32,000 nucleotides of DNA from contig NZ_CP011391.1 in NCBI RefSeq assembly GCF_001564455.1, positions 1,590,001-1,622,000 on the forward strand, given 5' to 3'. Position numbers and translations under genes: made by a program. The notes beneath the pieces are model-generated. The model made no database searches, was not told where the DNA came from, and saw only the letters and a program-made list of their open reading frames with translations. Position 1 is the stretch's first letter. Each line of letters opens with the position of its first letter. Positions 4,025-32,000 of this stretch are shown here, in pieces. Source of the stretch: Faecalibaculum rodentium. Lineage in GTDB: Bacteria; Bacillota_I; Bacilli_A; Erysipelotrichales; Erysipelotrichaceae.

Positions 4025-4109
4025 GGGGTCGTGGTGGAATTGGCAGACACGCTATCTTCAGGCGGTAGTGAGGCAACTCGTGTGCGTTCGAGTCGCATCG
4101 ACCCCACCA
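4025..4109 (+). tRNA. tRNA-Leu (anticodon CAG), class II with long variable arm, CCA encoded
   Basis: Hand-folded. Acceptor GGGGTCG/CGACCCC; 3-bp D stem GTG/CAC with a GG loop; anticodon stem CTATC/GGTAG with loop TT-CAG-GC; variable arm GAG-GCAA-CTC; T stem GTGCG/CGCAT with loop TTCGAGT; discriminator A followed by CCA. Confidence 0.95.
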
Positions 4110-4120
4110 TCTTGAAACTT

Positions 4121-4151
4121 ACCCGGCGGGATTTCCTGCCGGGTTTTCATT
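4121..4151 (+). terminator. Rho-independent terminator after tRNA-Leu
   Basis: ACCCGGCGGG-ATTT-CCTGCCGGGT forms a 10-bp stem with one G-U pair, followed by TTTCATTTTC. Confidence 0.7.
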
Positions 4152-4226
4152 TTCATGATATAGCCTGCAATCAGAATCGTTATTTGCTCCTGAAACTGAC
4201 TTTAGATGTTAGCAGAAGGAGAAAAT

Positions 4227-4828
4227 ATGCTCAAAACCTATGAAATGCTGAAACAGGATCTGACTGCGTATAAAGCACTTGATATGAAAATAAAGAGAAT
4301 GGCAGACCGTCGTGAAGTCATCAAGCTGAAAAAGAATCTGTATAAGACCGGTCCGACAGTTTCCGGTTATCTGGAAGCGGCAGCGATCTGTACACCGTCA
4401 TATTTGTCTTTTGATTATGCCCTTTCCTGCCATGGACTCATACCGGAGAGGGCAAAAATCTATACGAGTGCAACATGCCGGAAAAGAAAGAAAAAAACCT
4501 TCAGGAACTGGTTCGGTACATATTTTATCAGGATGTCCCGCTGTCTGTTTTTCCATACGAAATTGAAATATGCTACGAAAATGAAAGACCTTGTTTGATG
4601 GCTACGCCCGAAAAAGCTGTATGCGACAAGCTCTGCACCGTCAAGCCCATACGCTCCAGAAAGCATCTGCAGCAGCTGCTTTTTGACGACTGAAGAATAG
4701 ATGAAGACGCATTCAGCAAACCGGACTTTTCTGTGCTCAGGGAATTGTGTCCTCTATATAAATCGACAACTTTGACCATGCTGTTAAAACTGACCGGTAC
4801 CTGGCAATCCGATGATTCATCACTCTGA
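4227..4828 (+). pseudogene. AbiEi-family (type IV TA antitoxin-like) gene disrupted by a frameshift and an in-frame TGA
   Basis: ATG 4227 follows an AAGGAG RBS. Frame 0 reads ...PSYLSFDYALSCHGLIPERAKIYTSATCRKRKKKTFRNWFGTY. Homology then continues in another frame (FYQDVPLSVFPYEIEICYENERPCLMATPEKAVCDKL...), switching at the T4 run 4523..4526; restoring one T joins the frames. An in-frame TGA at 4691..4693 interrupts ...LLFDD*RIDEDAFSKPDFSVLRELCPLYKSTTLTMLLKL, which ends at 4828. The repaired length is about 200 aa, as expected for this family. Confidence 0.7.
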
Positions 4829-4870
4829 GCTGTCTGAACGTTCCTGGACCGGTTTTCTTCGCATTCACAC

Positions 4871-4930
4871 AAAAGCGTCTCATCCCATACCGCTGTATTC
4901 ACACCGGTCATGCAGGATGAGACGCTTTTT
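4871..4930. terminator. Long bidirectional terminator-like hairpin between convergent AbiEi remnant and helicase
   Basis: Perfect 15-nt arms AAAAGCGTCTCATCC (4871..4885) and GGATGAGACGCTTTT (4915..4929), with A/T tracts on both sides. The 29-nt loop contains an inner ACCG/CGGT stem. Confidence 0.6.
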
Positions 4931-4975
4931 CCTGTTCTTTATTGCCTCGGTTTCGTATTGGGCAGTCCATGTCCT

Positions 4976-7357
4976 TCAAAGTCCCGGCAGTTCTCTGATC
5001 CCTTCCTGCCCCTGTCTGCCATCATCGGCATCCTGAACGGCTTTCCAGCTCAGGACGCGCTTCTTCATGCCCTCCACATCCAGGACCCCGTGGGCGAAGC
5101 CCTTGCGGACAAGTTCCTCCGGCACGAATTCATCGTATTTCTCGAACACCGGCACTTCCCCGGGATACACCAGATCCAGCGGATCGAATTCCTTCGCGGC
5201 TTCCTCCAGCACGATACGATAGAACTCTGCTTCACTCACCTTCATGGTGAAGGTGATGTAATACGGCCTGGTGGGGCTCAGACCCCGAAGCTGCAGACGC
5301 TCGCCGCACTTGAGTTTCAAAAACCGCTCCATGGCCAGGAAGGCATAGGAGCCCAGCCAGGGAAACAGCACCCACATGTTGCCCCCGAGGTGCACAAGGG
5401 GTTTTGTCAGCATGCCGGAATTCCGGAAGTTCTCCCGGGCCTGGCCAAGCCTGGCCACCGCATGCTTCATGAGATAGGGATAGGACCTCTCCTCTCCCAT
5501 CACCTTGTACATCCTTTCCAGGATCCGCGTGTGGATGTCCCCGGCGCAGTCCCCAAAGTATGCAGGGATGTGTCCCTTGACCCGCCGGCAGTAGACTTCG
5601 TGCTTCTTGTGATCCACTTCCTCCACCAGCCAGACCCGGCCGGCAATGGCAATCTTGTCCCCCACCGGAGGCGGTTTGCAGATGGTGCCCAGTTCTTCGC
5701 TCTCCGCCCTCACGGCATATTCCACGTTTTCCTGGAACACCGCAAAGAACTTGTAGCTGTTCACGATGCGCTCTCCTGTCAGCCCCACGATCAGGCCCCC
5801 GGTTTCCGTCCTGGCAATGTGGTCGATTTCGAGCAGGTGCAGCAGCAGCATCCGGAAATCCTCCTGGGAGATGCGATGAAAGGGCGAGAGGGTCAGGACC
5901 CGGGTGGCGAGTTCCGCCGGGGTCATTTCCCCGCAGGAGGCCAGGGTACTCATGGTCTGGTGATAGAGCAGGCTGAAGGGCAGCCGGTCCATCCGGGGTT
6001 CTTCCACAAACCGCTCCTCGATGTACAGCTGCACCAGGGCGATGCCCTGAATGAGATACCAGGGCAGGATCTCCGGCAGCATGGCCCTTGCCTCTGCGTG
6101 TTCTTCCCGCATCACAAACCACATCTCCGAAGGGTCGCCCCGCCGGCCTGTGCGCCCCATGCGCTGCAGGAAGCCGGACACCGTAAATGGCGCATCGATC
6201 TGGAAGGCCCGCTCCAGCCGCCCGATGTCGATCCCCAGCTCCAGGGTCGCCGTGGCACACACCGACTGCAGGGAGTCGTCATCCTTCATTTCCTCCTCCG
6301 CGCTCTGGCGGTAGGAAGCCGAGAGATTGCCGTGGTGGATCAGAAACCGCTCCGGTTCATGGCGGATTTCGCAATACTGGCGCAGAAACTGGCACACCGA
6401 CTCGCATTCTTCCCGGGAGTTGGTGAACACCAGGCACTTCTTGCCCCGTGTGTGCTCAAAGATGTATCCCAGTCCCGGATCGGCGGCCTTCGGCGCCTGG
6501 TCCGTGGGCCCGTCAAGCTCCTCCATGGGCGGCTGATCCTGTGTCAGGGAGCCGATGCCGGCCTTCAATGCACGCCGTTGCCTCTCCCACTGTGGCTGCT
6601 CCTGACCGGACTGCCACTGCAGGACGGGATGACCCGCACCCGCATCCGCCTGGGCACCGGTATTGTAAAAGTGCTCCATGGAGATCCGCCACACTTCCTT
6701 CGGGGCTTCAAACTTCGGGATCACACAACCCCGGCCGCTGCCCGCAGAAAGAAACTGACCCGCTTCCTCCGGGCTGCCGATCGTCGCCGACAACCCAATG
6801 CGCCGGGGACTGCAGCCGGCGGTCCGGGACATCCGCTCGATGAGGCTGAAAGTCTGCAGTCCCCTGTCTCCGCGAAGCAGGAAGTGAATCTCGTCGATCA
6901 CGATGAAACGCAGGTCGTGAAACAGCGACGGGATCTCCATGTGTTTGGTGATCATGAGGGACTCCAGGGACTCCGGCGTGATCTGCAGGATCCCGGCGGG
7001 TTTCTTCAGGAGCCGCTTTTTCTGGCTCTGGGGCACATCCCCATGCCAGCGTGTGACCCGGATTCCCGCTTCCTCGCACAGGTCGCTCAGGCGCCCGAAC
7101 TGGTCGTTGATCAGGGCCTTCAGCGGCGCTATGTACAGGACTCCCACGCTCTGGGGCGGATCTTCGTCCATGAGTGTCAGGATCGGGAAAAACGCGGCTT
7201 CGGTTTTTCCGGATGCCGTGGAAGCCGTGAGCAGGACGTTGTCCTCTGTGTTGAAAATCGCATCTGCCGCTGCATTCTGGACCCCGCGCAATGTCTGCCA
7301 CCCGGAGGTGTAGATGTAATCCTGAATGAACGGCGCATAGCGTGCGAAGGCGTTCAC
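4976..7357 (-). CDS. DExH-box helicase, Lhr/BrxHI-like (Shango SngC-like)
   Basis: 793-aa ORF with motif I ASTASGKTEAA, motif II VIDEIH, SAT (GLSATIG) and motif VI QRMGRTGRR. The C-terminal region is about 380 aa. The GTG start overlaps the upstream stop (GTGA, 7354..7357). Confidence 0.92.
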   Translation of the reverse strand: MNAFARYAPFIQDYIYTSGWQTLRGVQNAAADAIFNTEDNVLLTASTASGKTEAAFFPILTLMDEDPPQSVGVLYIAPLKALINDQFGRLSDLCEEAGIRVTRWHGDVPQSQKKRLLKKPAGILQITPESLESLMITKHMEIPSLFHDLRFIVIDEIHFLLRGDRGLQTFSLIERMSRTAGCSPRRIGLSATIGSPEEAGQFLSAGSGRGCVIPKFEAPKEVWRISMEHFYNTGAQADAGAGHPVLQWQSGQEQPQWERQRRALKAGIGSLTQDQPPMEELDGPTDQAPKAADPGLGYIFEHTRGKKCLVFTNSREECESVCQFLRQYCEIRHEPERFLIHHGNLSASYRQSAEEEMKDDDSLQSVCATATLELGIDIGRLERAFQIDAPFTVSGFLQRMGRTGRRGDPSEMWFVMREEHAEARAMLPEILPWYLIQGIALVQLYIEERFVEEPRMDRLPFSLLYHQTMSTLASCGEMTPAELATRVLTLSPFHRISQEDFRMLLLHLLEIDHIARTETGGLIVGLTGERIVNSYKFFAVFQENVEYAVRAESEELGTICKPPPVGDKIAIAGRVWLVEEVDHKKHEVYCRRVKGHIPAYFGDCAGDIHTRILERMYKVMGEERSYPYLMKHAVARLGQARENFRNSGMLTKPLVHLGGNMWVLFPWLGSYAFLAMERFLKLKCGERLQLRGLSPTRPYYITFTMKVSEAEFYRIVLEEAAKEFDPLDLVYPGEVPVFEKYDEFVPEELVRKGFAHGVLDVEGMKKRVLSWKAVQDADDGRQGQEGIRELPGL

Positions 7358-8682
7358 AGGGTGAACTCCGCAAACGCCGTCGCTGCATCATCGGACACCG
7401 CTTCGGATTTCGTGTACGTGAATTCATCCGAAGCCAGGAGGTCCGCCAGCTTCATCTCCGGATGCTGGTACATCAGGTCCAGCACCTCGATGAAGTCCCG
7501 GATCACTTCCCGCGGCGTGATGTTGCTGTCGGCACCCACCCGGCTGAACTCGATTTTGATGAACTCCGCCAGGTCTTCATCCGTCACAGACTGGGAATAG
7601 CCATACAGCCCGGCGTGCATGGCAGCCAGCTTATCGCAGAGCACCAGCATCTCCGCTGCCGTCAGCGGCTCCAGCCGGATCACCGGAGCCAGCATGTCCC
7701 GGGCCCCGGGTCTGGAAAACTTGCCTTCCGCCAGACGGGAGCGCAGGGCTTCATAGCCGTAGACTCCGCGCCGTCTGTCTTCCACCGCCTGCGGTGTGGC
7801 CCCCATGATGATGCCCAGGTACTTCGCCTTTCCCTGCAGCGTATCATTGTACATCGTCAGCATTTTTTCATAGTTGTACTGTCGCGTGATGCTGTTGGGT
7901 ATCTTGTAGATGTTCACCAGTTCATCGATCATGATCATCATCCCGGCATACCCCGCCAGGCGGAAGAACACCGCAAAGAGCTTCAGGTAGTCATACCAGT
8001 CGTCATCTGTGATGATGATGTTCACCCCCAGCGCTTCCTTTGCCTCGCGCTTCAGGGCATATTCGCCGCGGAACCACCGGATGACCTTCATCCTGGTCTC
8101 GTCGTCCTGCTCGATATACGCATGGTAGTACTTCGAGAGCAGGGTCGCAAACTCGAATCCGTGCACCAGCTCGCTGATTTGTGATGTCAACGCGACAATT
8201 TTGCGGTCCACCGCTGCAGACAGGGCCGGATCTCCGGGCTGAAGACCGGTTTCCTGCGCGGCCTGTGCCTGCACCGAACTGATCCAGCGGTCGAGAATCA
8301 GGGTCAGGGCGCCCCCTTCGGGCCGGGTTTTGGTCGCCAGGTTGCCGATCAGTTCCCGGTATGTGGCCAGCCCCTGACCCCGGGTGCCCTGGAGCCGACG
8401 TTCGGGTGACAGGTCTGCATCCGCCACGATGAATCCTTTGTCCATGACATAGTTGCGGATGGTCTGGATCAGGAAGCTCTTGCCTGATCCATAGCGCCCC
8501 ACGATGAAGCGGAACGAAGCCCCGCCCTCCGAAATGATGTCCACGTCATGGAGCAGCGCCTCGATTTCACTTTTGCGTCCCACGGTGACATAGGGCAGGC
8601 CGATCCGCGGCACAACCCCGCCCTTCAGGGAATTCAGGACCGTCCGGGCGATCCGTTTGGGCACTTTGTTCTGTTCATTCAT
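7354..8682 (-). CDS. P-loop ATPase of the DUF2791/BrxD-like family (Shango SngB-like)
   Basis: 442-aa ORF. The N-terminus ...VLNSLKGGVVPRIGLPYVTVGRKSEIEALLHDVD... is followed by Walker A GRYGSGKSF and Walker B MMIMIDELV. Its ATG overlaps the upstream gene by 8 nt (8675..8682). Confidence 0.9.
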   Translation of the reverse strand: MNEQNKVPKRIARTVLNSLKGGVVPRIGLPYVTVGRKSEIEALLHDVDIISEGGASFRFIVGRYGSGKSFLIQTIRNYVMDKGFIVADADLSPERRLQGTRGQGLATYRELIGNLATKTRPEGGALTLILDRWISSVQAQAAQETGLQPGDPALSAAVDRKIVALTSQISELVHGFEFATLLSKYYHAYIEQDDETRMKVIRWFRGEYALKREAKEALGVNIIITDDDWYDYLKLFAVFFRLAGYAGMMIMIDELVNIYKIPNSITRQYNYEKMLTMYNDTLQGKAKYLGIIMGATPQAVEDRRRGVYGYEALRSRLAEGKFSRPGARDMLAPVIRLEPLTAAEMLVLCDKLAAMHAGLYGYSQSVTDEDLAEFIKIEFSRVGADSNITPREVIRDFIEVLDLMYQHPEMKLADLLASDEFTYTKSEAVSDDAATAFAEFTL

Positions 8683-10768
8683 GTTTCATACCTCCCAGGA
8701 TGTCCATGACGTCCTCTCTGTAGTCTTCCACCAGCGCAATGCTGTCTCCGTCGCATTCCATGGCATTGTCCCCGATTTCGTCAAACAGTGCCTCGTTGAT
8801 GGCATCCGTCACCACCGACGCCAGCAGGTGGTGTTCCCGGATCAGCGGTTGTGCGGATTTGCCTGCCAGCAGCGCTTCGAGGATCTGGCGGTGCACAGGA
8901 TCCAGGTCCATGCCCGATTCACCACCGGTGTCTGCCGGCAGGATCTCCGGCGGCCGTTCCTCATCGTCTGTCTGCCCTGGTTCGCCGATGGTGTCTGCCT
9001 CAAGGGCTGCGGATTCCGGCTGTGTCCTTGCTTCTGTGTCCGGGTCATCCAAAGCCGCAGGCTCAACGGGCGGAAAGTGCGCGGGTCGCGGGACTTCAGG
9101 TGTCCTCTCCTCTGTTTCTTCCTCTGTCAGCAGGCTGTCCCGGGTTGCGATCGCATCCTGACGGATTTTCGAAAGAGAGGAGAAATCGATCTGCACGCTG
9201 TCCATGGCGGCCCTGCGCTCTGCCTCCCGTTTCCTGGCTTCCCGTTCCTGTCTGTCCCGTTCCACGGTTTCCAGGATGAAGGGTTCGACCCAGGCTTCTT
9301 CGGGACGCTTCTGCAGGCTGCCCCGGATCCCGGCTTCTTTGCGCAGCAGGCGTTCCATCGCCCGGACAATGACCTGCAGCCGGTCCAGGTTGAAATACAG
9401 GGATTCATACCGGGATTCGTGCCAGATTCCCTTGTGCCGCGACCAGGACCGGATGGGACTCAGGTGATACTCTCTGTCCTTTCCCTGCTCAGGATCCATC
9501 CAGACTGCATTGGACAGCGGATACCAGCGATAGGACTGGGCCGTGCCGAAACAGGCTTCAAACACCGTCTGGCCAGTATCCTGCCATTTGTGGTCCACCA
9601 GGTCGCGCCAGGCCTGTGCAAACAGGGCCGGCCCCCTGCCCGAGCTGTCCCGCACGACCTTTCCCTGCTTCTGCCACCGGGGTGCAAACTGCAGCAGGGC
9701 ATCGCAGATTTCCCGGTCGGTGCGGTTCTGCGGTTCCTTCAGGATCGACAGTGCCTCGTCCCGCCTGGCAGTTTCCGGATGCATGTAGCGGACGGTGACC
9801 TCCGGGGGCATGTCGTGGACAATGCTGAATTCATACATCCACCGCCGCAGGTTCAGGTGCATCTGCTCATCCCCGTATCCCGCATCCAAAAAGCCGGTTT
9901 CAAAGGCTTCCAGCTTTTCCAGCGTATCCTTTGGCGAATCCGCACCGATGCCATTGAGCAGTTCATAGAGATACAGATACGCCAGCGAAGAATTGGCGTC
10001 CTGGAATATCCCGTTGCGGATTTCCGTCCGCCAGGTGAAGTATCCCCGCAGCTGGCGGACATTCAAGTCATGATAGGTGGGAAACCGCTGCCGGATCCAG
10101 CCGTTCCAGGGCAGATGGTCCGTGGCGTTCTCCATGAACCGCCCCTGCCGGACGAAGTTTCTCGCCGCATGCCCCGATTTGCGGTCATTGTAGTCATACA
10201 GGTCCATCATGTCGATGTACTGCTGCGGCAGGGCGTCTGTCGCCCGGAAGAAACTGTCAGTAATTCCTGTCCCTCCCCTGGCTGGTGTCTGTCTGGAAGC
10301 AGCATCCGGGGCCGGAACCGGTGCAGAGTTGCCGCTTTTCCAGTCCCCGAAATCCAGTGGCACGTCCTGAAACACACGTTCCTTCGCGGTCTCCGGTGCC
10401 GGATTCTCCAGCACGATGGCTTTCGCCGGCGGATTCCCCAGCCGGATGGCCTGGTCAAACAGGCGCAGAACCACACCCCTGTCTGTCTCGTCCGTAAACC
10501 GGACGCCGATCCAGTTGGTCCCCTTCATGCGGAATGGCCCGGACAGCCACTCAGGCGAGCGCTCAGAGAGAACGACATGGCCGCTTTTCAGGTCGCAGAC
10601 TTCCTGCATTTCCCCCGCATCAGGATCCCACTGGCGCATAAGCAGCGCCACCCACTTCCCGGTCTTTGGATGACAGAGGACAGAAAAACCGGGAAACTGT
10701 GTCCACTTGTATTCTTCCCGGATTCCGTATTTGTTCAAGGCATACACCGTCAGGCCCTCCAGCAGCAT
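8675..10768 (-). CDS. YjbR/MmcQ-like + TerB-N + TerB-C multidomain protein (Shango SngA-like)
   Basis: Start trimmed to ATG 10768 (MLLEGLTVY...), because AAGGGAGGGG lies 5 nt upstream. The track's start at 10786 is a GTG inside that RBS. aa 1-112 resemble MmcQ/YjbR (GKWVALLM, CDLKSG, FRMKGTNWIGVRF). aa ~185-330 are TerB-N-like (YHDLNVRQLRGYFTWRTEIRNG...LAYLYLYELLNGIG). An acidic, low-complexity linker follows. aa ~525-697 are TerB-C-like (LDPVHRQILEALL...DAINEALFDEIGDNAME). Confidence 0.85.
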   Translation of the reverse strand: MLLEGLTVYALNKYGIREEYKWTQFPGFSVLCHPKTGKWVALLMRQWDPDAGEMQEVCDLKSGHVVLSERSPEWLSGPFRMKGTNWIGVRFTDETDRGVVLRLFDQAIRLGNPPAKAIVLENPAPETAKERVFQDVPLDFGDWKSGNSAPVPAPDAASRQTPARGGTGITDSFFRATDALPQQYIDMMDLYDYNDRKSGHAARNFVRQGRFMENATDHLPWNGWIRQRFPTYHDLNVRQLRGYFTWRTEIRNGIFQDANSSLAYLYLYELLNGIGADSPKDTLEKLEAFETGFLDAGYGDEQMHLNLRRWMYEFSIVHDMPPEVTVRYMHPETARRDEALSILKEPQNRTDREICDALLQFAPRWQKQGKVVRDSSGRGPALFAQAWRDLVDHKWQDTGQTVFEACFGTAQSYRWYPLSNAVWMDPEQGKDREYHLSPIRSWSRHKGIWHESRYESLYFNLDRLQVIVRAMERLLRKEAGIRGSLQKRPEEAWVEPFILETVERDRQEREARKREAERRAAMDSVQIDFSSLSKIRQDAIATRDSLLTEEETEERTPEVPRPAHFPPVEPAALDDPDTEARTQPESAALEADTIGEPGQTDDEERPPEILPADTGGESGMDLDPVHRQILEALLAGKSAQPLIREHHLLASVVTDAINEALFDEIGDNAMECDGDSIALVEDYREDVMDILGGMKHE

Positions 10769-10916
10769 TCTGTCCCCTCCCTTCACATTTTGTTCTCAGA
10801 GTTCATGTATGGTTATTGTACTATAGACCCGCTTTTGATTCAGCAGGGAGTTTTCGGCTGCCGATGGTGAATGACAGGTATACAGAGAAACGCAGGGGGC
10901 CTTGAGCGGATTCGTC

Positions 10917-10942
10917 GAAAAAGCCGGACTTTTCACCCGGCT
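10917..10942 (-). terminator. Rho-independent terminator of the XRE gene
   Basis: Minus-strand AGCCGG-GTGAAAAGT-CCGGCT followed by TTTTTCG. It separates the XRE gene from the TerB/ATPase/helicase operon. Confidence 0.65.
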
Positions 10943-10997: not shown

Positions 10998-11597
10998 TCA
11001 TCCTCCAAGGAACCCGGCCACCCAAATGGCAAGCGCAGCCAGCAGCACTCCCACAGCAGCGCTGGCCAGTACTTTGAACACCGCCTGATACGGCCGCTTG
11101 CCTCTCTCTTCGGCGGCTTCCAGTTCCTCCAGAGTGCGGCCTTCGCTGTAGGCCACGATTTCCCGGTAGGTATGCAGGTTGTGATTTTTCTTCAGCTTCT
11201 CCACCCGGAAGGCTTCATGCATCGTGACTGCGTACATGATCGCCCACAAAGCAATGGCCCACCACTGGTCACGGGCCAGGGCCAGAGCAGCCAGCGGAAT
11301 GAAGGTCACGGCAGATACAATACACATGACGGCAAATATCCGGCTTTCCCGGTTGAAGCTGTCCACCGCTTCCTGACTGATTTCCTGTTTCATGGTTTCC
11401 AGGTCTCCTTTGATCAGCTGGTCCACAGACACACCAAAGAGCTGGCTGAGAAGCAGCAGCGACTGAATATCCGGATAGCTTTTGCTGTTTTCCCAGTTGG
11501 ATACGGTTTGACGGGTGACAAAGATTTTGTCTGCCATGTCCTTCTGGGAAAGTCCGGATTCTGTACGGTGTTTTCTGATCTGCACGGCAATTTCCAT
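10998..11597 (-). CDS. XRE-family HTH regulator with C-terminal transmembrane segments
   Basis: Start trimmed to ATG 11597 (MEIAVQIRKHRTESGLSQKDMADKIFVTRQTVSNWENSKSYPDIQSLLLLSQLFGVSVDQLI), preceded by GGAAGGAG. Three hydrophobic stretches follow: IFAVMCIVSAVTFIPLAALALA, WWAIALWAIMYAV and VLASAAVGVLLAALAIWVAGFL. Confidence 0.88.
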   Translation of the reverse strand: MEIAVQIRKHRTESGLSQKDMADKIFVTRQTVSNWENSKSYPDIQSLLLLSQLFGVSVDQLIKGDLETMKQEISQEAVDSFNRESRIFAVMCIVSAVTFIPLAALALARDQWWAIALWAIMYAVTMHEAFRVEKLKKNHNLHTYREIVAYSEGRTLEELEAAEERGKRPYQAVFKVLASAAVGVLLAALAIWVAGFLGG

Positions 11598-11701
11598 TTT
11601 CTGCTCCTTCCTGCCTGCGGGTGTTCCGTGTCCTGGATCCATTGTGGCAGGCGGCTGCTGGAAGCATACAGCAAATTCCGTTGTCATGACCAGAAATCCC
11701 G

Positions 11702-11719
11702 TGTCAAAACTCTTTGACA
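11702..11719. promoter_or_regulatory. Perfect palindromic operator-like site upstream of the XRE gene
   Basis: TGTCAAA-ACTC-TTTGACA: 7-bp perfect inverted repeat arms with a 4-nt spacer. It sits about 105 nt upstream of the XRE start, in the divergent intergenic region. The TTGACA within it could also serve as a -35 element. Confidence 0.4.
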
Positions 11720-11875
11720 TGCGTATTTCTGCGTCACTGTCTGTATAAGTTCAAGGAATATGCGTAAATTAAGATAAATCTTTCAATTCAGCATTATGTT
11801 CTGGTTTTGTACATCAGGCCATGGCACGGTAACAAAAACGGCCGGGAATCAGTCTGGAGAGGAAAGGAATGGAGA

Positions 11876-12484
11876 ATGAAGAAATCACTTGTGCTGATGA
11901 GGCATGGAGAAACGGTGTTCAACAAACGCAAACGCATCCAGGGCTGGGTGGATTTGTCTCTGACTGCTCTGGGAAAGGAGCCGGCAAAGTAATCTGCTGC
12001 CTGGATCAGAGCGCTGGGATTTGAAATCGATCATGCCTTCTGTTCCACTTCGGAAAGAGCCAGCGACACGCTGAAACTGATGACTTTCCTGTCCTATGAG
12101 CGTAAAAAGGGTTTGAAGGAATGGAATTTCGGCAAGCTGGATGGAGAGCCGGAGTACCTGAATCCACCGTTGGATCAGTATGATGCCTTTTTTCGGGGCA
12201 ATGGCGGCGAAGGAAGGCAGGAACTTATCGACCGCATGAATGAGACCCTGACGGAAATCATGAACCGCAAGGATGTGCAGAATGTACTGGTGGTGTCCCA
12301 CGGGGCAGCAATCCGGAATTTTCAGCGGTTCTGGTGTCCCGATGACAGGAAGCTGATTCCAGGCAGATTGTATACCTGTACGGTTCTGGTCTTCGAATAC
12401 AATACCGGTGATCAGCGCTTCACTCTGCAGGAAGTGTACAATCCGAATTATCAGGGAATGACATCCAGTCCGGCGGCTGGCTGA
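11876..12484 (+). pseudogene. Histidine phosphatase (phosphoglycerate-mutase-like) family gene with a single in-frame TAA
   Basis: ATG 11876 begins MKKSLVLMRHGETVFNKRKRIQGWVDLSLTALGKEPAK. TAA lies at 11990..11992. The same frame then continues SAAWIRALGFEIDHAFCSTSERASDTLKLMTFLSYERKKGLKEWNFG...VVSHGAAIRNF. The RHG, SxxxRAxxT, E and SHG catalytic motifs are all intact. Confidence 0.75.
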
Positions 12485-12515
12485 AAGCCGAAGACCCGTC
12501 AGAATCAAAACAAGA

Positions 12516-12548
12516 GACCTGTCACCGCAATCCGCAGGTCCCGTTTTC
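12516..12548 (+). terminator. Candidate terminator of the histidine phosphatase gene
   Basis: GACCTG (12516..12521), a 13-nt loop, then CAGGTC (12535..12540), followed by CCGTTTTCAG. Confidence 0.4.
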
Positions 12549-12578
12549 AGCTTTCAAGGCGCTGACTCAACTCAGTGA

Positions 12579-12611
12579 GTGACCTGTATGATCACAGATC
12601 ATACAGGTCAC
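12579..12611. repeat. Perfect 33-nt palindrome (15-bp arms, 3-nt loop) overlapping the xpt stop codon
   Basis: GTGACCTGTATGATC-ACA-GATCATACAGGTCAC. No U-tract follows on either strand. The right arm contains the xpt stop (12608..12610). Confidence 0.8.
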
Positions 12612-13186
12612 TGGTCTGGCTCATCCCAGACAATGCCGTCTTCGGACATGGATTTGACAGATGCCAGAACATACAGCGGGATTCCCAGATCCCGGATCGT
12701 TTTCCGGCCGTGCTGCCAGGATTTCTCAATGCAGATCCCGGCCCCGGCCAGATGGGCCTGTGCCTGGTCCAGCAGGGTCAGAATGCCTTTGAAAGCATCG
12801 CCGTTGGCAAGGAAATCGTCGATGAACAGGACATGGTCCTCTGCCTTGATCAGGCCCTGTTCCACACACAGTTCATAGTCCCTGTTTTTGGTAAAGGAAT
12901 GCACGGTGGCAGTCAGCGGTGCAGTCATAGTCACCGGTCTGGCTTTTTTCACAAATACCATCGGGACGCCGAGATGCATGGCTGTGGCAAGCGCGGGTGC
13001 AATGCCGCCGCTTTCGATCGTGATCACTTTGGTGATTCCGTCATCCCGGAAGTGACCGGCGAAATCCCGGCCGATGTGATCCATGAGCACCGGATCTACG
13101 GAGTGATTCAGAAAGCTGTCTGTTTTCAGTACCTGGTCAGACAGCACCTTTCCTTTTTCTTCTATGATCCTCTTCAGTTCTTCCAT
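12608..13186 (-). CDS. xpt: Xanthine phosphoribosyltransferase
   Basis: Start trimmed to ATG 13186 (preceded by AGAGGAAA). The protein reads MEELKRIIEEKGKVLSDQVLKTDSFLNHSVDPVLMDHIG...VITIESGGIAPA...VLFIDDFLANGDA. It aligns end to end, by memory, with Bacillus Xpt, including the PRPP-binding motif. Confidence 0.95.
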   Translation of the reverse strand: MEELKRIIEEKGKVLSDQVLKTDSFLNHSVDPVLMDHIGRDFAGHFRDDGITKVITIESGGIAPALATAMHLGVPMVFVKKARPVTMTAPLTATVHSFTKNRDYELCVEQGLIKAEDHVLFIDDFLANGDAFKGILTLLDQAQAHLAGAGICIEKSWQHGRKTIRDLGIPLYVLASVKSMSEDGIVWDEPDQ

Positions 13187-13324
13187 GGTGTTTCCTCTTT
13201 TCACGCTGCATGCCTCCGGCTGTTTGCTGCTTTCTCCGGAGCCGTCACTGCAAGCATACACCATTTCTGTCCCGGGATTTGAGGTTGCAGTCTGTTCCGG
13301 GCCGCAGCCGCCGCCCAGACCCTT

Positions 13325-13765
13325 TCAGGAAGCTGCCTCTTTCTTCTGCTTCCGGTATCCTGCCAGAGTACGAGCCACGCCGGCGGCAATCAGGCATCCG
13401 GCAGCAATCCCGGCACCCTGAAGAAATGTGATTCTGGCCCAGCCTCCAGCATCCGCATAGTCCAGGATCCAGCAGCGGATGGTTTCGAATATCCCCTTTC
13501 CCGGAACAAGCGGAATCAGGGCACAGACCAGGTAGGCGGTAACCGGACTGCAAAAGATCCTGGCCAGAAGTTCTGCAAGCAGTGTCACTGTCAGGGACGC
13601 TGTGGCCATGGCAGCAAATTCGTTCCAGTCTGCAGCTTTCGTGAGAACATAGACGATCTGGCCCATCATGCCGTTGAAAGCCGCCAGCCACAGGTTACGG
13701 CCGGAGAGATTGTACATGCAGGCAAATCCCAGGGCTCCTGCAAAAGCCCCGATGATGCCAGTCAC
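13325..13765 (-). CDS. Threonine/serine exporter family protein, small subunit (YjjB/DUF3815-like)
   Basis: GTG start at 13765 overlaps the upstream stop (GTGA), with GGAGG just upstream. The 146-aa polytopic protein reads MTGIIGAFAGALGFACMYNLSGRNLWLAAFNGMMGQIVYVL... Confidence 0.8.
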   Translation of the reverse strand: MTGIIGAFAGALGFACMYNLSGRNLWLAAFNGMMGQIVYVLTKAADWNEFAAMATASLTVTLLAELLARIFCSPVTAYLVCALIPLVPGKGIFETIRCWILDYADAGGWARITFLQGAGIAAGCLIAAGVARTLAGYRKQKKEAAS

Positions 13766-14604
13766 AATGCCTCCAGAATCAGCAGTGTGCCGATGTTTCC
13801 CAGAGCAATGGCTGCAGCAGTGAGTATCGCCATAGAAAGCCGGATCTGACCGGACAGGGTATCTCCGGCGATGCAGTCGCGAAGGGCGGTGGTAAAAAGC
13901 ATTCCCGGGACCAGAATCATCAAAGCTGCCAGGATCACCACATTGGCACGGATGCTGAAAAGACCGCCGGCTGTCACCCCGGCAAGAGTAATCAGGGAAC
14001 TTCCCAGAAGTGTGCGCAGGGAAGGGGTGCAGAAGTCCAGTTTTTCCAGCAGCAAAGTGCAAAGCGCTGCACTGACCGCAGCTGCGGCGGTTTCGCAGAC
14101 TGTGCCCTGGAACACCAGGGCAAATCCGGCGCCGGCTGCAGCGGCTCCTGAAATCATGCGTAGAACAGAGGCCCCGGGTTCTTCCTGGATCCTGCACAGG
14201 CTGCGGTAGCAGTCTTCCAGTGTGATCTCTCCGGACTGCAGCTGTCTGGACAGGGCGTTGACCTGTTCGATTCTGCCCAGATCGGTACCGGACTGGGCGA
14301 TCCGTTTCATGTTGTGGATCATCTGGCCATGCCAGGTAAAGGAAATCATCAGCATGCCTGGTGTTACGTAGGAGTCTGTCACTACGGCGCCGCCTGCCTG
14401 ACAGATCCGACTCATGGTGTCTTCTGTACGGCCTGTCTCTGCTCCGCTTTCCAGAAGGATCCGTCCTGCCAGCACTGCGGTTCTGGCCAGCAGGGTTCCC
14501 GGATCTTTCCGGGAAAGTTCGTCATAGACCTGCAGTTCGCTGCAGGCTGGTTTTTTCCGGTGTATGCGGCCGGGTACCCAGCTTCCCTGTCTGTTGTGTT
14601 TCAT
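13762..14604 (-). CDS. Threonine/serine exporter family protein, large subunit (ThrE/YjjP/DUF1212-like)
   Basis: 280-aa ORF with a GAGGAGGGG RBS. It has a soluble N-terminal region (AVLAGRILLESGAETGRTEDTM) followed by a membrane domain typical of this family. Confidence 0.88.
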   Translation of the reverse strand: MKHNRQGSWVPGRIHRKKPACSELQVYDELSRKDPGTLLARTAVLAGRILLESGAETGRTEDTMSRICQAGGAVVTDSYVTPGMLMISFTWHGQMIHNMKRIAQSGTDLGRIEQVNALSRQLQSGEITLEDCYRSLCRIQEEPGASVLRMISGAAAAGAGFALVFQGTVCETAAAAVSAALCTLLLEKLDFCTPSLRTLLGSSLITLAGVTAGGLFSIRANVVILAALMILVPGMLFTTALRDCIAGDTLSGQIRLSMAILTAAAIALGNIGTLLILEAL

Positions 14605-14666
14605 CCATTCCCCTCCTCTGTTCTGTCTGACTGTATTTTATACACCGGTCTTCCAGGCATCAGTAC

Positions 14667-14711
14667 AGCGGCGCCTTTCCCTGCTGGAAAAGACGCCGCT
14701 CTGCTTTTTTT
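14667..14711. terminator. Strong hairpin after the yhf-like cluster; its U-tract lies only on the plus strand
   Basis: AGCGGCGCCTTTCCC-TGCT-GGAAAAGACGCCGCT forms a stem of about 15 bp, followed on the plus strand by CTGCTTTTTTT. On the minus (coding) strand the A-tract precedes the stem. Confidence 0.4.
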
Positions 14712-22700: not shown

Positions 22701-23633
22701 TCAGTAACTGGCAATGAGCTTTCCTTCCATGACCAGCTGCTGGTTTTTCAGCACCACATCTGCATCGATCAGACTGCCGATGAGAGAAACAAGCTCTTTT
22801 CTGTCCTTTTTTACGACAATCACAGCTTCGGTATCTTTTTCCTGCTTGAAATCCAGGATCCTGTAGCTCATATCATAGAGCTTGTCCCGGATCTCATCCA
22901 TGTTCCATACCGCTGCGTCCACTTCCCCGGACAGGACTTTCTGCAGCACCTGGGTGTATTCCACATTGATGTAGTCCACCTCTTTGCCCCGGCAAGCCCA
23001 TTCCGTCATCTCCTTCTGATCCACGGAAGACTGATCCACACCGATTTTCATTCCATCCTGCACATCTTTGCAGCGTCTGTCGTGAAAAACCATGATGTGA
23101 TTGGACAGATAGGAGTGCAGCCCGAAACTTTTCACGATCCGGATGGGCATCCCGCCATCAATCATTCTCTGAGCTGCATACCGGGAAATCACGGCAAAAT
23201 CATACCGGTCACACAGAACCATGGAGACCCGGTTTCTGGATCCTCTCATAAATGCCAGAGAGATGGGAATGTCATAGCTGTTTTCCATACTGGCTACCAG
23301 TCCTGTGGCCAGTCCTTCGTATCTGCGGGAATAGGGCAGCGGCATGACTCCAAGAATGTTGGTGATGCCCGCAATCTCCAGCAGTTTCTTCACGTCTCTT
23401 TTTTTCAGGATCGTTCCTGACTTGCCATGGGATTCCAGCTCCACCGCTCCGCACTGCTGCAGAAGCTTGATGGCATTCTGCACCGTTCCCCGGGCCAGCT
23501 GAATCTGATCATTGAGCTCCGTGACGGTGGGGATCCGGTCTCCTTCCTGGAATGCGAGAAGAAGATTGGCGAGTTTGCGGGTGGAAAGCCCGTTTTTGCT
23601 GAAGAGAAGTTTCTGAATGCCCATAGAATTCAA
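22701..23633 (-). CDS. yhfZ: YhfZ-like transcriptional regulator (N-terminal GntR-like wHTH + periplasmic-binding-protein-like C-terminal domain)
   Basis: 310-aa ORF. The HTH reads STRKLANLLLAFQEGDRIPTVTELNDQIQLARGTVQNAIKLLQQCGAVELESHGKSGT. The TTG start at 23633 has GGAAAGG 6 nt upstream. The alternative ATG at 23624 has poorer RBS spacing. Confidence 0.85.
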   Translation of the reverse strand: MNSMGIQKLLFSKNGLSTRKLANLLLAFQEGDRIPTVTELNDQIQLARGTVQNAIKLLQQCGAVELESHGKSGTILKKRDVKKLLEIAGITNILGVMPLPYSRRYEGLATGLVASMENSYDIPISLAFMRGSRNRVSMVLCDRYDFAVISRYAAQRMIDGGMPIRIVKSFGLHSYLSNHIMVFHDRRCKDVQDGMKIGVDQSSVDQKEMTEWACRGKEVDYINVEYTQVLQKVLSGEVDAAVWNMDEIRDKLYDMSYRILDFKQEKDTEAVIVVKKDRKELVSLIGSLIDADVVLKNQQLVMEGKLIASY

Positions 23634-24478: not shown

Positions 24479-25171
24479 CTACAGTCCGGCTTCCGGTTCT
24501 TCCCGGACCATCTTGTATCCGACACCGAAACTCGTTTCGATGAACCGGTGATCGAGCTTCTTGCGCAGCATCGTCATGTAGACCCGCAGGTTGGTCATGT
24601 CCGAACTCCAGGAGCTGTTCCAGATCTGCGTGGTGAGGAAATTGCGCGTCAGCACCTTCCCCGCATTCCGGGAAAACAGCACCAGGATCCTGTACTCCAT
24701 CGGCGTCAGATGCAGCAGCTTTCCATCCAGGCGCACTTCCTGCTCCTGGTACCGGATCTCCAGTCCCCCGTTCACAAACACATCCGACTCCGGCAAAGTG
24801 CCTGTCTGTTCCAGACGCCGGCAGATCACCCGGATCCGTGCCAGCAGTTCATCCACCGAAAAAGGCTTGGCCAGATAGTCATCTGCACCCAGGTCCAGCG
24901 CCTCGATCTTGTCCGCCGGCTCGCTTCTGGCCGACAGAACCAGGATCGGTGCCTGGGAAAAACCCCGGATCTTCCGGATCACCTCCAGGCCATCCAGATC
25001 CGGCAGACCCAGGTCCAGGATCACCAGCTCCGGTTTCTCCGAGAGAAACATCGACAGAGCTTCCTTTGCGCTTTTGGCCTGGATCAGGGGATAGTCGGAC
25101 AGCTCAAACACCGTCCGCAGCAGACTGGTCATCTGCAGGTCGTCTTCCACACTTAGTATCAATGGCTTCAT
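24479..25171 (-). CDS. kdpE: KdpE response regulator (OmpR family)
   Basis: Start trimmed to ATG 25171 (MKPLILSVEDD...), with AGGAGAG 5 nt upstream. The receiver domain (ILDLGLPDLDG, VLSARSEPADKIEALDLGADDYLAKPF) is followed by a winged-helix output domain (LTPMEYRIL...GVGYK). Confidence 0.93.
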   Translation of the reverse strand: MKPLILSVEDDLQMTSLLRTVFELSDYPLIQAKSAKEALSMFLSEKPELVILDLGLPDLDGLEVIRKIRGFSQAPILVLSARSEPADKIEALDLGADDYLAKPFSVDELLARIRVICRRLEQTGTLPESDVFVNGGLEIRYQEQEVRLDGKLLHLTPMEYRILVLFSRNAGKVLTRNFLTTQIWNSSWSSDMTNLRVYMTMLRKKLDHRFIETSFGVGYKMVREEPEAGL

Positions 25172-27773: not shown

Positions 27774-27828
27774 GGTCTCATTCTGCCACAAAGGCCCTGC
27801 GCCTGAACAACGCAAAGCCTCTGTTTCC

Positions 27829-28410
27829 TTATTCCTGTCCATCCAGTGCCAGGTTGACTCTGACAACGCTGACGGTCTTTTCGGAGAACACCGTGGGATT
27901 GACGTTCTCCCGGATGATTTCTTCCACCGTGACCTCGTCCATATCCCGGGCTGCAGCAATCCGCGGCACCTGCCACAATGCCGCGTCCAGCGAGAGATCC
28001 GGGTCATTGCCCGATCCGGAATACGTCACCAGCTCCTCCGGCACCGGACCGGCCGCATCGGGATTGGCTGCGGCGATCTGCTGCATCCGCTGCGCCTTCT
28101 GTGCCTGATACTCCGGGCTGCCTGTGTCACTGTTGGCGGGTACACCCACGACATACCAGCTGCCGTCTTCCTTCTGCACCGCCTGCTGCTTCTGCAGCCG
28201 GCCCCAGAGGTGACCTGCATCGCGGAAGTTTTCTCCCGCCAGCAGACTTGTCTTCCCCTGGATGCCGATGGTGAGAGATCCGTCGGCCTGTACCGGAAAG
28301 AACAGGCGGCTGATGCCCAGAACAGCGAAGGAATAGACCAGGCCGGTCAGCACCAGGGCCAGCACCAGGAATTTCAGGGCGCTGACAGACTGCTTCCAAT
28401 AAAGTTTCAT
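27829..28410 (-). CDS. kdpC: Potassium-transporting ATPase subunit C
   Basis: Start trimmed to ATG 28410 (preceded by TAGGAGGAA). The protein starts MKLYWKQSVSALKFLVLALVLTGLVYSFAV and contains SGSGNDPDLS, the typical KdpC SGSxLDPxIS region. Confidence 0.9.
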   Translation of the reverse strand: MKLYWKQSVSALKFLVLALVLTGLVYSFAVLGISRLFFPVQADGSLTIGIQGKTSLLAGENFRDAGHLWGRLQKQQAVQKEDGSWYVVGVPANSDTGSPEYQAQKAQRMQQIAAANPDAAGPVPEELVTYSGSGNDPDLSLDAALWQVPRIAAARDMDEVTVEEIIRENVNPTVFSEKTVSVVRVNLALDGQE

Positions 28411-28421
28411 GCGGATTCCTC

Positions 28422-30452: not shown

Positions 30453-30457
30453 GGTTC

Positions 30458-32000
30458 TCACATACCTCCCAACAGTTCAGCCACAGGTCCCAGGGCCAGG
30501 GCCGGGAAAAAGCTCAGGGCTCCCACCAGCAGGACCACCAGGACCAGCAGGAACACAAACATCGCATTGTCGGTTTTCAGCATCCCCGCATTGTCCGCCA
30601 CCGGCTGTTTCATGCCCAGAGATCCCGCCATCTGCAGCACGGCCATCATCGGCACGAATCTGGCTGCCAACATGAGCAGACCGCCGAGTCCGTTGACCAG
30701 CCATCCCGTAGTGTCATAGCCTGCCATGGCGCTGCCGTTGTTGGCGCCCATGGAGGAGAATGCGTAGAGGATCTGCGTGAATCCGTGGGCGCCGGGATCC
30801 AGGCCGGGCATGGGGTGCAGCGAGGCAATGGCCGAACCGGCGAGAATGCAAACCGGGGTCGCCAGACACAGAATCACCGCCCGTTTCATTTCGTATGGCT
30901 CGATTTTCTTGTGGAGGAACTCCGGGGTGCGGCCGACCATGAGACCGGCAATGAACACGGTCAGGATCACGAAGGCGAGCATTCCGTAGAGGCCGCTGCC
31001 CACGCCCCCAAACACCACTTCCCCGACCTGCATGAGCACCAGGCACACCAGGGCAGAGAGGCTGTTCATGCTGTTGAGGGCGGAGTTCACCGATCCGCTG
31101 GAAGCGGCGGTGGTGCTCACGGACCAAAGGGCACTCTGGGCCACGCCGATCCGGGCTTCCTTTCCTTCCATGTTCATTTGCTGCAGTTCAGGGACCATGG
31201 CAGCGGCCAGTGCCAGGACAAAGAGCACAGCCATGGCCGAAAAGAGGGCGATCCCCTGCCTGCGGTTTTTCACCATGAAGCCGAAGGAGAAGCACAGGGC
31301 CATGGGGATCAGCAGGATCAGTACGTTTTCCAGGACATTGGTCAGCGCGGTGGGGTTCTCAAAGGGATTCGCGGAATTGCCCTGGGTGATCCCCCCGCCG
31401 TTGGTGCCGGCCTGTTTGATGGCGATCTGCGAGGCGGCCAGTCCTGTCGGAATGCGCTGTTCTGTGATCACCACGGCATCGGGCACCGGTTCGTCATTCA
31501 CATATACCGTCCCGTTTTCGATGACTGCCTCTTCCAGGATCGTTCCATCGGCCGTCGCAGCCACAGGTTCGGTCAGGGCGACATACTGCTCGCTGCCGGG
31601 ATTCATGGGCACCCCCTGCCAGGAGAGGATCACACCGGAGACCAGGCTCACGGGAATGAGGATGAAGAGAATGGCACCGGTCATGTCCTGCCAGAAGTTT
31701 CCCAGCGCGGCGGACTGCCGGCCCGTCAGGCCCCGGATCAGGGCGAAGAGCACACAGATGCCCACAGCCGCGGACACAAAGTTCTGGACCGTGATTCCGA
31801 AGGTTTCCGTCACCCAGCCCAGGGACAGCATAGGGTCATAGGACTGCCAGTTGGTGTTGGTGACAAAGGAACAGGCAGTGTTGAACGCCATGACGGGATC
31901 CATCCCGTCCACGAGCAGCATGACGAGCAGCAGGATCAGGGAAGCTGCCGAGAGGGTGAGCACCGCCGCGAGATACTGCTTCCAGTTCATCTCCCGGCCG
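30458..32000 (-). CDS. kdpA: Potassium-transporting ATPase subunit A, 5' end beyond window
   Basis: The ORF begins at an internal MNWKQYL. The frame stays open upstream to the window edge (..[10 protein letters not shown]), and E. coli KdpA has the same ..REMNWKQYL motif about 55 aa into the protein. [10 protein letters not shown] is also conserved. Confidence 0.9.

Follow-up and report, generated by a model that had tools for sequence, protein, structure and literature searches.

Three adjacent minus-strand genes in a 32,000-nucleotide stretch of the Faecalibaculum rodentium genome (NCBI RefSeq assembly GCF_001564455.1, contig NZ_CP011391.1, positions 1,590,001 to 1,622,000; the whole stretch is here called the window) form what we judge, with very high confidence from profile matches and sequence motifs, to be a complete and intact operon of the Shango family, sngA-sngB-sngC. 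The operon is probably a defense system, most probably one directed against phage or other invading DNA. The Shango call itself is not new, as PADLOC-type tools already make it. What the analysis adds is a Shango class in which SngA, predicted to be soluble, is headed by an MmcQ/YjbR domain and contains no TerB domain, beside very conserved SngB and SngC proteins. Sequence comparisons place the window operon in this class, which is architecturally distinct and widespread among gut and rumen anaerobes.

Assignment of the operon to the Shango family

The three genes are as follows (E values are those of the PADLOC models).

8675..10768, minus strand: sngA, 697 aa; TerB_N/TerB_C protein with an MmcQ/YjbR-like head; PADLOC SngA (PDLC03958), 9.2e-65
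7354..8682, minus strand: sngB, 442 aa; BrxC/BrxD-family (DUF2791) AAA+ ATPase; PADLOC SngB (PDLC03959), 4.8e-188, full length
4976..7357, minus strand: sngC, 793 aa; Lhr/Ski2-like DExH helicase; PADLOC SngC (PDLC03960), 4.9e-273

The PADLOC Shango models are the top match for each of the three window proteins. The SngA model aligns to residues 183-697 (in the numbering of a 703-aa protein) over profile positions 64-527 of 528, with the head outside the match, and the SngC model covers residues 2-766 over profile positions 2-715 of 720. Pfam searches identified TerB_N (1.6e-18) and TerB_C (1.8e-21) in SngA, BrxC_BrxD (DUF2791, PF10923; 2.1e-167) in SngB, and DEAD (3e-30), Helicase_C (1e-19), and a weak WH_Lhr match in SngC. 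An earlier reading of this DNA made without database searches, hereafter the sequence-only reading, had proposed the TerB-N, TerB-C, and DUF2791 assignments together with a Shango composition, and the profile searches, with E values well outside the range of chance, bear out both. The ATPase and helicase motifs that it listed are likewise all present in the proteins named: Walker A GRYGSGKSF (aa 62-70, 8473-8499) and Walker B MMIMIDELV (aa 248-256, 7915-7941) in SngB, and motif I ASTASGKTEAA (aa 45-55, 7193-7225), motif II DEIH (aa 155-158, 6884-6895), and motif VI QRMGRTGRR (aa 398-406, 6140-6166) in SngC. Compared by BLAST with the validated Shango system of Escherichia coli KTE113, the window SngB is 38.7% identical (E 6e-102) and the window SngC 35.6% identical (E 8e-78) to their counterparts.

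Both proteins also match components of type 2 BREX (bacteriophage exclusion), at far lower scores: SngB scores 624 bits against the PADLOC SngB model versus 161 bits against BrxD (9.3e-48), and SngC scores 906 bits against the SngC model versus 408 bits against BrxHI (1.9e-122). The NCBIfam BrxD equivalog NF033438 gives SngB 163.8 bits, below its cut-off of 350. By Pfam, no PglX, PglZ, PglW, or BrxC was found among the large window open reading frames (ORFs) scanned, a set that leaves out 30458-31990, and no methyltransferase or kinase of BREX type was found in the scanned ORFs. The stand-alone character of the cassette, with no PglX or PglZ nearby as the sequence-only reading had it, thus holds for this set. 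Because the Sng models match best, the BrxD cut-off is missed, and PglX, PglZ, and PglW are absent from the scan, the locus is best described as a stand-alone Shango-type operon and not as a BREX fragment. The Pfam scans of window ORFs also returned none of the Ter cluster families TerC, TerD, TerZ, and TerA. Among solved structures, the best relative of SngC is Lhr of M. smegmatis (5V9X, 7LHL), followed by YprA and Brr2, and the NCBIfam repair-helicase models, including the Lhr type, score SngC far under their cut-offs (e.g., 207 versus 850 bits). Pfam, PADLOC, and hydropathy reveal no nuclease or toxin domain and no membrane segment in SngA, SngB, or SngC.

The ORF listing gives all three genes intact, and they are translationally coupled: sngA and sngB share 8 nucleotides (nt), ATGAATGA, at 8675-8682, and sngB and sngC share 4 nt, GTGA, at 7354-7357, both overlaps being exactly where the sequence-only reading had placed them. 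At full length the sngA ORF spans 8675..10786 and encodes 703 aa. The most likely start is the ATG at 10768, giving 697 aa, because GGGAGGGG lies 5 nt upstream of it, gene callers in other assemblies give 697 aa, and homologues begin at that residue. Signals at the borders of the operon are as follows.

10774..10781, minus strand: ribosome-binding site GGGAGGGG, 5 nt upstream of the sngA ATG, by direct reading of the sequence
4871..4929, minus strand: terminator-like hairpin, 47 nt past the sngC stop; 15-bp perfect arms (4871-4885/4915-4929), 29-nt loop, then UUUU
10922..10942, minus strand: weak 7-bp hairpin with a U-run, 3' of the upstream helix-turn-helix (HTH) gene; context, outside the operon

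The hairpin 3' of sngC (-36.8 kcal/mol, z = -7.8; none of 200 shuffled sequences folds as well) is real and strong, in agreement with the proposed 15-bp-arm structure at 4871..4930. A terminator had also been proposed upstream at 10917..10942. The hairpin at 10922-10942 (-10.2 kcal/mol, z = 0.02) is no more stable than shuffled sequence and was not reported by a terminator scan, so insulation of the operon on its upstream side is weakly supported.

Domain architecture of SngA

A model of SngA built with AlphaFold2 from a 35-member clade alignment (mean predicted local distance difference test [pLDDT] score, 75), together with profile searches, predicts five parts: a double-wing head of the YjbR type, a disordered linker, a helical body with a TerB_N-like region, a second linker that is acidic, and a TerB_C domain, which is acidic as well.

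10439..10768, minus strand: MmcQ/YjbR (PF04237/DUF419) double-wing head, SngA residues 1-110, from the clade profile and Foldseek
10235..10438, minus strand: disordered, length-variable linker, residues 111-178; pLDDT < 50 at 112-178
9119..10234, minus strand: TerB_N-like helical region, a helical middle with a small beta-sheet, and long helices, residues 179-550
8915..9118, minus strand: acidic, proline-rich disordered linker, residues 551-618; pLDDT < 50
8678..8914, minus strand: TerB_C core, strongly acidic, residues 619-697; Pfam TerB_C, 1.8e-21

The head is modeled with a pLDDT of about 70 to 89 and residues 179-550 mostly with 80 to 97. As a single sequence, the head matches Pfam YjbR with an E value of 0.019 (profile positions 1-86 of 88) and 16.0 bits against a gathering score of 30.1, and since this is under the gathering threshold, routine annotation overlooks it; 14 of the 35 clade SngA proteins match at E<=0.05. 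Searched against the sequences of the PDB, the 35-member clade profile finds PSPTO_3016 (2KFP/3H9X) with an E value of 7e-12 over SngA residues 1-109. A Foldseek comparison of the SngA model with 3H9X gives an E value of 8e-7, a target-based template modeling score (TMt) of 0.84, and a root mean square deviation of 2.1 A at 25% identity, and the head further matches 2KFP, 2FKI (E. coli YjbR), and 2A1V (DR2400). Outside the N-terminal domain, Foldseek returned no match for SngA among PDB or viral structures.

MmcQ/YjbR has been described as a "double-wing" fold that resembles the C-terminal domain of T4 MotA and is predicted, from this likeness in structure and surface, to bind DNA (Bell et al., PMC7641849), and the same work reports nuclease fusions of the domain in defense contexts and fusions to TerB proteins in some contexts. 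The YjbR-TerB fusion as such is therefore not new; we found no paper that links it to Shango.

The TerB_N match is partial, covering residues 197-314 and profile positions 26-132 of 207, and an invariant QLRGYFTWR...YLYLYELLNG motif lies within region 179-550. The conserved residues of TerB_C are D655, N658, E664, G666, D667, E681, D682, and Y683, in a segment with 18 D/E and 5 K/R. The two linkers are poorly conserved, with mean pairwise identities of 0.28 (111-178, where homologues carry large insertions) and 0.16 (551-618); the latter contains 20 D/E and 12 P in 68 residues and has a within-species ratio of nonsynonymous to synonymous polymorphism (pN/pS) of 0.87. TerB proper (PF05099) was found by Pfam in neither the window SngA nor the 35 clade members nor 8 further representatives. 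No transmembrane segment was found in SngA: its maximal Kyte-Doolittle hydropathy over 19 residues, KD(19), is 0.93, and no stretch exceeds 1.6. SngA is thus predicted to be a soluble protein without a TerB domain.

Among the 150 best cluster representatives of SngA, about 26 begin past the head. This count is an upper bound for a headless "short" SngA class, because an example on a C. estertheticum plasmid turned out to be a start-codon miscall, and we do not claim such a class. On that plasmid (NZ_CP086238.1; positions 5163-7004 of the extracted locus L106), SngA is annotated with 533 aa, and the deposited start is probably wrong because tblastn shows the YjbR head running on in frame upstream of 5163. 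A large double-ABC ATPase gene lies 3' of the cassette there.

Distribution and evolution of the class

A scan of species-representative genomes (one genome per species) identified 373 stretches that encode relatives of the window SngA; the taxonomy and locus comparisons that follow rest on the best 80 of them. Several phyla are represented, Bacillota, Chloroflexota, and Spirochaetota among them; the 80 include members of Lachnospiraceae, Oscillospiraceae, Erysipelotrichaceae, Chloroflexota (Flexilinea, Leptolinea), Spirochaetales, Victivallales, and Desulfovibrio, and their sources are almost all metagenome-assembled genomes (MAGs) from gut or rumen. From a library of clusters at 50% identity, the SngA profile retrieves 1209 representatives at E<=1e-30. 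The A-B-C order on one strand is kept in all 56 complete loci and the 4-nt SngB/SngC overlap in 43 of 59 loci.

The three components evolve at different rates. In related loci, SngB is 72-83% identical to the window protein (68% in one locus) and SngC 72-79%, while SngA is 37-44% identical. Across 55 systems the mean pairwise identity is 0.51 for SngA (0.45-0.62 in its folded domains), 0.82 for SngB, and 0.84 for SngC, and these alignments indicate that SngA is the fastest-evolving component. The same asymmetry is present in an E. coli/Klebsiella pair of Shango systems (76% for SngA versus 97% and 90%).

Carriage on plasmids differs between the window type and the proteobacterial type. A window-type SngA occurs on 1 of 72,556 plasmids, the C. 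estertheticum plasmid described above, and proteobacterial-type Shango occurs on 696 plasmid records, 542 of them conjugative, mostly from Klebsiella and Salmonella. No SngB homologue was found in phage genomes, and no match to the cassette was found in E. coli genomes at the DNA level. The species scan returned no Faecalibaculum match, the best match being 43% identical; the species-representative genome of F. rodentium therefore apparently lacks the cassette.

Variation within F. rodentium

Proteins 93-96% identical to the window SngA are deposited for F. rodentium at NCBI, and every contig with the window's ThrE allele has the cassette. Some contigs have flanks that match the window closely (0-2 differences per 200 nt over 11100-14700) yet carry a cassette allele that differs by about 3-7%. 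Such diverged alleles on near-identical flanks point to allelic exchange of the cassette. Between two F. rodentium alleles, pN/pS is 0.22 for SngA, 0.09 for SngB, and 0.13 for SngC, which indicates purifying selection on all three genes, and the SngB sequence is identical in many independent metagenome assemblies.

The cassette is absent from one MAG, GCA_948848815.1 (strain L012), whose homology to the window ends at 4150, just past the tRNA-Leu gene and its hairpin (4121-4144). We rejected this MAG as a clean empty site, since everything past window position 4150 differs and the break (in the region 9553-9800 of L012) is a rearrangement boundary; beyond it are entirely different genes, for adenine deaminase, SfsA, and a Sel1-repeat protein. 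Other strain breakpoints fall at 11495 (L013) and 11609 (L001). In L013 (1-2826), genes for a Mob_Pre relaxase and a large serine recombinase (Resolvase/Recombinase/Zn_ribbon_recom/DUF4368) adjoin the cassette and truncate the HTH gene, and by sequence it looks as if a mobile element inserted right beside Shango. Across this clade the behavior of the cassette is that of a compact, self-contained mobile unit without conserved neighboring genes, unlike systems housed in large defense islands.

The C-terminal tail of SngC (residues 771-793, 4976-5044; …AVQDADDGRQGQEGIRELPGL) is not conserved across species (identity, 0.13), and some F. rodentium strains have a 794-aa SngC. In an alignment of the window with strain L099, divergence peaks at this tail and the hairpin, with 69 differences in 200 columns.

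Genomic context of the cassette

In F. rodentium the cassette is flanked by tRNA-Leu and an esterase gene on one side and by an XRE-type HTH gene on the other.

4025..4109, plus strand: tRNA-Leu(CAG), by ARAGORN; a strain breakpoint (~4150) lies just after it
4206..4693, plus strand: frameshifted AbiEi pseudogene, ORFs 4206-4598 and 4475-4693; PADLOC AbiEi 5.1e-29 (profile 4-114/192) and 5.7e-15 (86-154/192)
10998..11597, minus strand: XRE-type HTH protein with transmembrane helices, 199 aa by gene calls elsewhere, longest ORF to 11720; Pfam HTH_3 7.5e-14; KD 2.52

About 280 nt separate AbiEi from sngC, and PADLOC finds no match to an AbiEii partner. The sequence-only reading had described a defense islet beside a decayed AbiEi locus and a tRNA gene; the AbiEi pseudogene and the tRNA-Leu gene are both present, whereas the defense context is thin. 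Site-specific integration is not claimed: no att-like direct repeats of the tRNA-Leu 3' end flank the islet, and Pfam found no integrase among the large window ORFs scanned. A scan of the whole window at the Rfam gathering threshold gave no match and missed even the tRNA-Leu gene found by ARAGORN. The HTH gene was considered as a fourth component and rejected, as just 2 of the 80 loci from other species have a gene like it next to the cassette.

The guanine-plus-cytosine (GC) content is 44% at 4110-4975, against 56-60% around it, and 60% in the Shango cassette. A Kdp potassium-uptake regulon at 24479-31990, which comprises a response regulator (probably KdpE), KdpD, a KdpB-like P-type ATPase, and a 510-aa ORF (probably KdpA), has a GC content of 60-65%, above the window average, and high GC alone is therefore no sign of a foreign origin of Shango.

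According to Pfam, the window also encodes a GntR/ABC transporter unit, an esterase, a ThrE exporter, a phosphoribosyltransferase, a yhf-like operon, and the KdpD, response regulator, and KdpB-like ATPase already mentioned. The yhf-like operon (14717-23633) encodes a YhfZ-type regulator, YhfT, an amidase, a phosphotriesterase-family protein, a YhfS-like and a YhfX-like protein, and a metalloenzyme. Strains L099-L104 have this operon, as does the window, whereas strains L001-L008 lack it and have the PNPOx gene directly beside ThrE; within the species it is thus a presence/absence polymorphism of about 9 kb. A histidine-phosphatase gene on the plus strand is split (11807-11992 and 12080-12484). 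The same split, into 38 aa and 134 aa (123 aa in some), occurs in most other F. rodentium assemblies examined, so the split has the look of a pseudogene that has become fixed, not of an error in sequencing. MatE genes replace the histidine phosphatase in strains L001, L003, L009, and L010.

Points against a defense role and alternative explanations

Several observations weigh against reading the operon as an antiphage Shango system or against the mechanism proposed below. The window SngA has no BLAST similarity to the E. coli KTE113 SngA (E 2.2), and an hhalign comparison of the clade SngA alignment with a Klebsiella SngA gives a weak TerB_C match only; at the level of these comparisons, the two SngA types are linked only by Pfam and PADLOC profiles. 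In the literature we found no phage test of this Shango class, the validated systems being proteobacterial. None of the three proteins has a recognizable nuclease or toxin effector, which leaves the block to phage unexplained and is the main gap in the mechanism. Binding of nucleic acid by the SngA head is predicted from its fold only, and the loader model for SngB is borrowed by analogy from a proposal for BrxD/BrxHI.

The gene neighborhoods belong on the same side. We classified the two nearest genes per side at 45 loci of other species, 150 genes in all, with PADLOC and Pfam. Most of them encode ABC transporters, two-component systems, solute-binding proteins, or regulators, and about 2 encode defense-like SNF2 helicases; the enrichment for defense islands that the sequence-only reading had suggested looking for is not seen among them. 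PADLOC matches to mad3, mad8, and AriA were rejected as defense genes, being cross-matches of ABC ATPases. The usual defense-island support is missing for this clade. Homologues do sit mostly among housekeeping genes, a setting that had been named in advance as contrary evidence, but the lack of any conserved partner among those genes speaks against a housekeeping function.

The alternative that survives best, itself unlikely, is that of a housekeeping module for DNA repair or replication restart, in which an Lhr-type helicase would work with its AAA+ partner and a DNA-binding adaptor on R-loops or damaged DNA of the host cell itself, and not on phages. The neighborhoods just described fit this explanation, as does the lack of a toxin or nuclease, and the nearest solved or NCBIfam relatives of SngC (Lhr, ligase-associated DEXH helicase, YprA/MrfA) are all DNA-repair helicases. 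The matches of SngC to the NCBIfam repair-helicase models, however, fall far under the cut-offs. The distribution is also unlike that of a housekeeping module: the operon is patchy across phyla, yet SngB and SngC are about 80% identical to the window proteins; its presence varies within F. rodentium, with diverged alleles on an otherwise identical backbone; and its adaptor subunit evolves fast. Two of its components, moreover, are homologous to those of a validated defense system.

Next in standing, and also unlikely, is a Shango-family system aimed at plasmids or conjugative elements and not at phages. The abundance of proteobacterial Shango on conjugative plasmids (542 of the 696 records) would fit competition among mobile elements, the system has no abortive-infection effector, and an element with a Mob relaxase and a serine recombinase adjoins the locus in one F. 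rodentium strain. Against this, the E. coli and P. aeruginosa Shango systems were shown to be antiphage in published tests, and plasmid-restriction data for Shango were not found in the literature searched. Antiphage and antiplasmid roles are mutually compatible.

It is very unlikely that the cassette is a decaying, nonfunctional relic like the neighboring AbiEi pseudogene. It does adjoin that frameshifted gene and the split histidine-phosphatase gene, and the SngC tail (771-793) is not conserved, but the three ORFs are intact with all catalytic motifs present, pN/pS between alleles is 0.09-0.22, and the SngB sequence recurs unchanged in independent metagenome assemblies.

The least likely explanation, that SngB and SngC are a BrxD/BrxHI pair left over from a type 2 BREX (Pgl) locus that has otherwise decayed, is effectively refuted. 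The two proteins do match the pair that type 2 BREX carries as a dyad, but they score much higher against the Sng models, SngB stays below the BrxD equivalog cut-off, PglX, PglZ, PglW, and BrxC were not found in the scanned window ORFs, and in all 56 complete loci a gene for a TerB_N/TerB_C protein stands ahead of the pair.

Proposed mechanism and significance

The literature searched, up to 2026, still gives the mechanism of Shango as unknown, as the sequence-only reading had stated, and the only published proposal, from Millman et al., is membrane surveillance via TerB. The mechanism that we put forward for SngABC is held with low confidence, and each of its steps is one that we infer. SngA would be a fast-evolving sensor and adaptor, a role suggested by its fastest evolution, its interchangeable head, and the DNA-binding-type fold of the head found here. 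The YjbR head would contact nucleic acid, either invading DNA or a replication intermediate, as its modeled fold suggests, and proteobacterial SngA proteins would use their membrane anchor for this part instead, where DNA enters the cell. SngA would couple to SngB by way of its TerB_N and TerB_C regions, and SngB, by analogy with BrxD, may be an ORC/Cdc6-like ATP switch that loads or activates SngC on the target. Unwinding or translocation by SngC would then block phage replication or expose the DNA to host nucleases. Protection may come without suicide of the cell, an extrapolation from the protection seen with P. aeruginosa in liquid culture.

More generally, Shango could consist of a conserved SngB-SngC engine and a SngA adaptor with an interchangeable sensing head, either a membrane anchor with TerB or a soluble YjbR domain; we offer this scheme tentatively and regard it as possible but doubtful. 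If it is true, the YjbR-headed class, the dominant one among gut and rumen anaerobes, would sense invading DNA, or its modification or end, directly in the cytoplasm, membrane surveillance would not be a general principle of Shango, and the all-soluble class would be the tractable version for Shango biochemistry.

The significance of the locus lies in the class that it represents. A large, horizontally spreading Shango class in gut anaerobes keeps its ATPase-helicase pair almost unchanged, and a soluble head of DNA-binding type stands where the SngA anchor and TerB are absent. SngA looks like the variable sensor or adaptor and SngB and SngC look like the conserved engine, and an all-soluble Shango would be available for reconstitution. 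For genome annotation the finding is an ordinary one that adds a defense system to the accessory genome of F. rodentium, a member of the mouse gut.

Comparison with known systems

Shango systems that protect against phage have been reported from E. coli and P. aeruginosa (10.1101/2022.05.11.491447, PMC10250203). In E. coli KTE113 (Millman et al. 2022, 10.1101/2022.05.11.491447 supplement) the proteins are 769 aa (SngA), 438 aa (SngB), and 732 aa (SngC), and for P. aeruginosa PA14 protection in liquid culture was reported (Johnson et al. 2023). The E. coli KTE113 system shares with the window operon the SngA-SngB-SngC order, a DUF2791 ATPase as SngB, a DExH helicase as SngC, and TerB_N plus TerB_C in SngA. 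The PADLOC SngB and SngC models score the window and proteobacterial types about equally, which places both types inside the Shango family as it is now defined.

The two types differ in SngA. The KTE113 protein begins with a predicted N-terminal transmembrane helix (KD 2.43, residues 2-18), whereas the window protein has the YjbR head there. The SngA proteins of E. coli, Klebsiella, Sulfitobacter, and Burkholderia all have one or two hydrophobic helices near the N terminus (KD(17) 2.3-2.7), and the window SngA has none. Those on the Klebsiella, Sulfitobacter, and Burkholderia plasmids carry TerB (PF05099) between full-length TerB_N and TerB_C domains, in contrast to the window SngA with its partial TerB_N and no PF05099. 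The Shango system of Klebsiella plasmid CP056521.1 is 76% (SngA), 97% (SngB), and 90% (SngC) identical to that of KTE113. Shango on the Sulfitobacter plasmid NZ_CP069001.1 is followed directly by genes with the annotation "ABC-three component system" (6641-8614 of the extracted locus L107), a second candidate defense system adjoining it, unlike in the gut-anaerobe clade.

Shango is listed in the literature for the TerB domain proper (PMC10952713), and two further TerB-linked defense proteins, BnzA of Bunzi and DinB of Dionysus, have been discussed together with it under the idea of membrane surveillance. These combine TerB proper with membrane partners, and the window SngA has neither.

In type 2 BREX, BrxD and BrxHI form a tightly linked dyad of an ORC/Cdc6-type AAA+ ATPase and a Ski2-like helicase; BrxHI carries winged HTH, beta-barrel, and Lhr C-terminal DNA-binding modules, and BrxD has been proposed to load or activate the helicase (PMC12839542). 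Judged by their lower scores and the missed equivalog cut-off, BrxD and BrxHI are paralogous and not orthologous to the window SngB and SngC, and in place of the BREX core of PglX, PglZ, PglW, and BrxC the window has a TerB_N/TerB_C partner.

Lhr of M. smegmatis (5V9X) has its DExH core in common with SngC, and a weak Lhr winged-helix match is present, but strong similarity is confined to the RecA-like domains; Lhr acts alone in DNA repair, while SngC is always coupled to SngA and SngB. For the head of SngA, the closest solved proteins are the MmcQ/YjbR proteins PSPTO_3016 (3H9X/2KFP) and E. coli YjbR (2FKI), with which it has a predicted fold in common and whose signature KW...ALLM...(H/R)M(N/K)..W it keeps. 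Those proteins are stand-alone and about 120 aa long, whereas the SngA version heads a multidomain protein of 697 aa.

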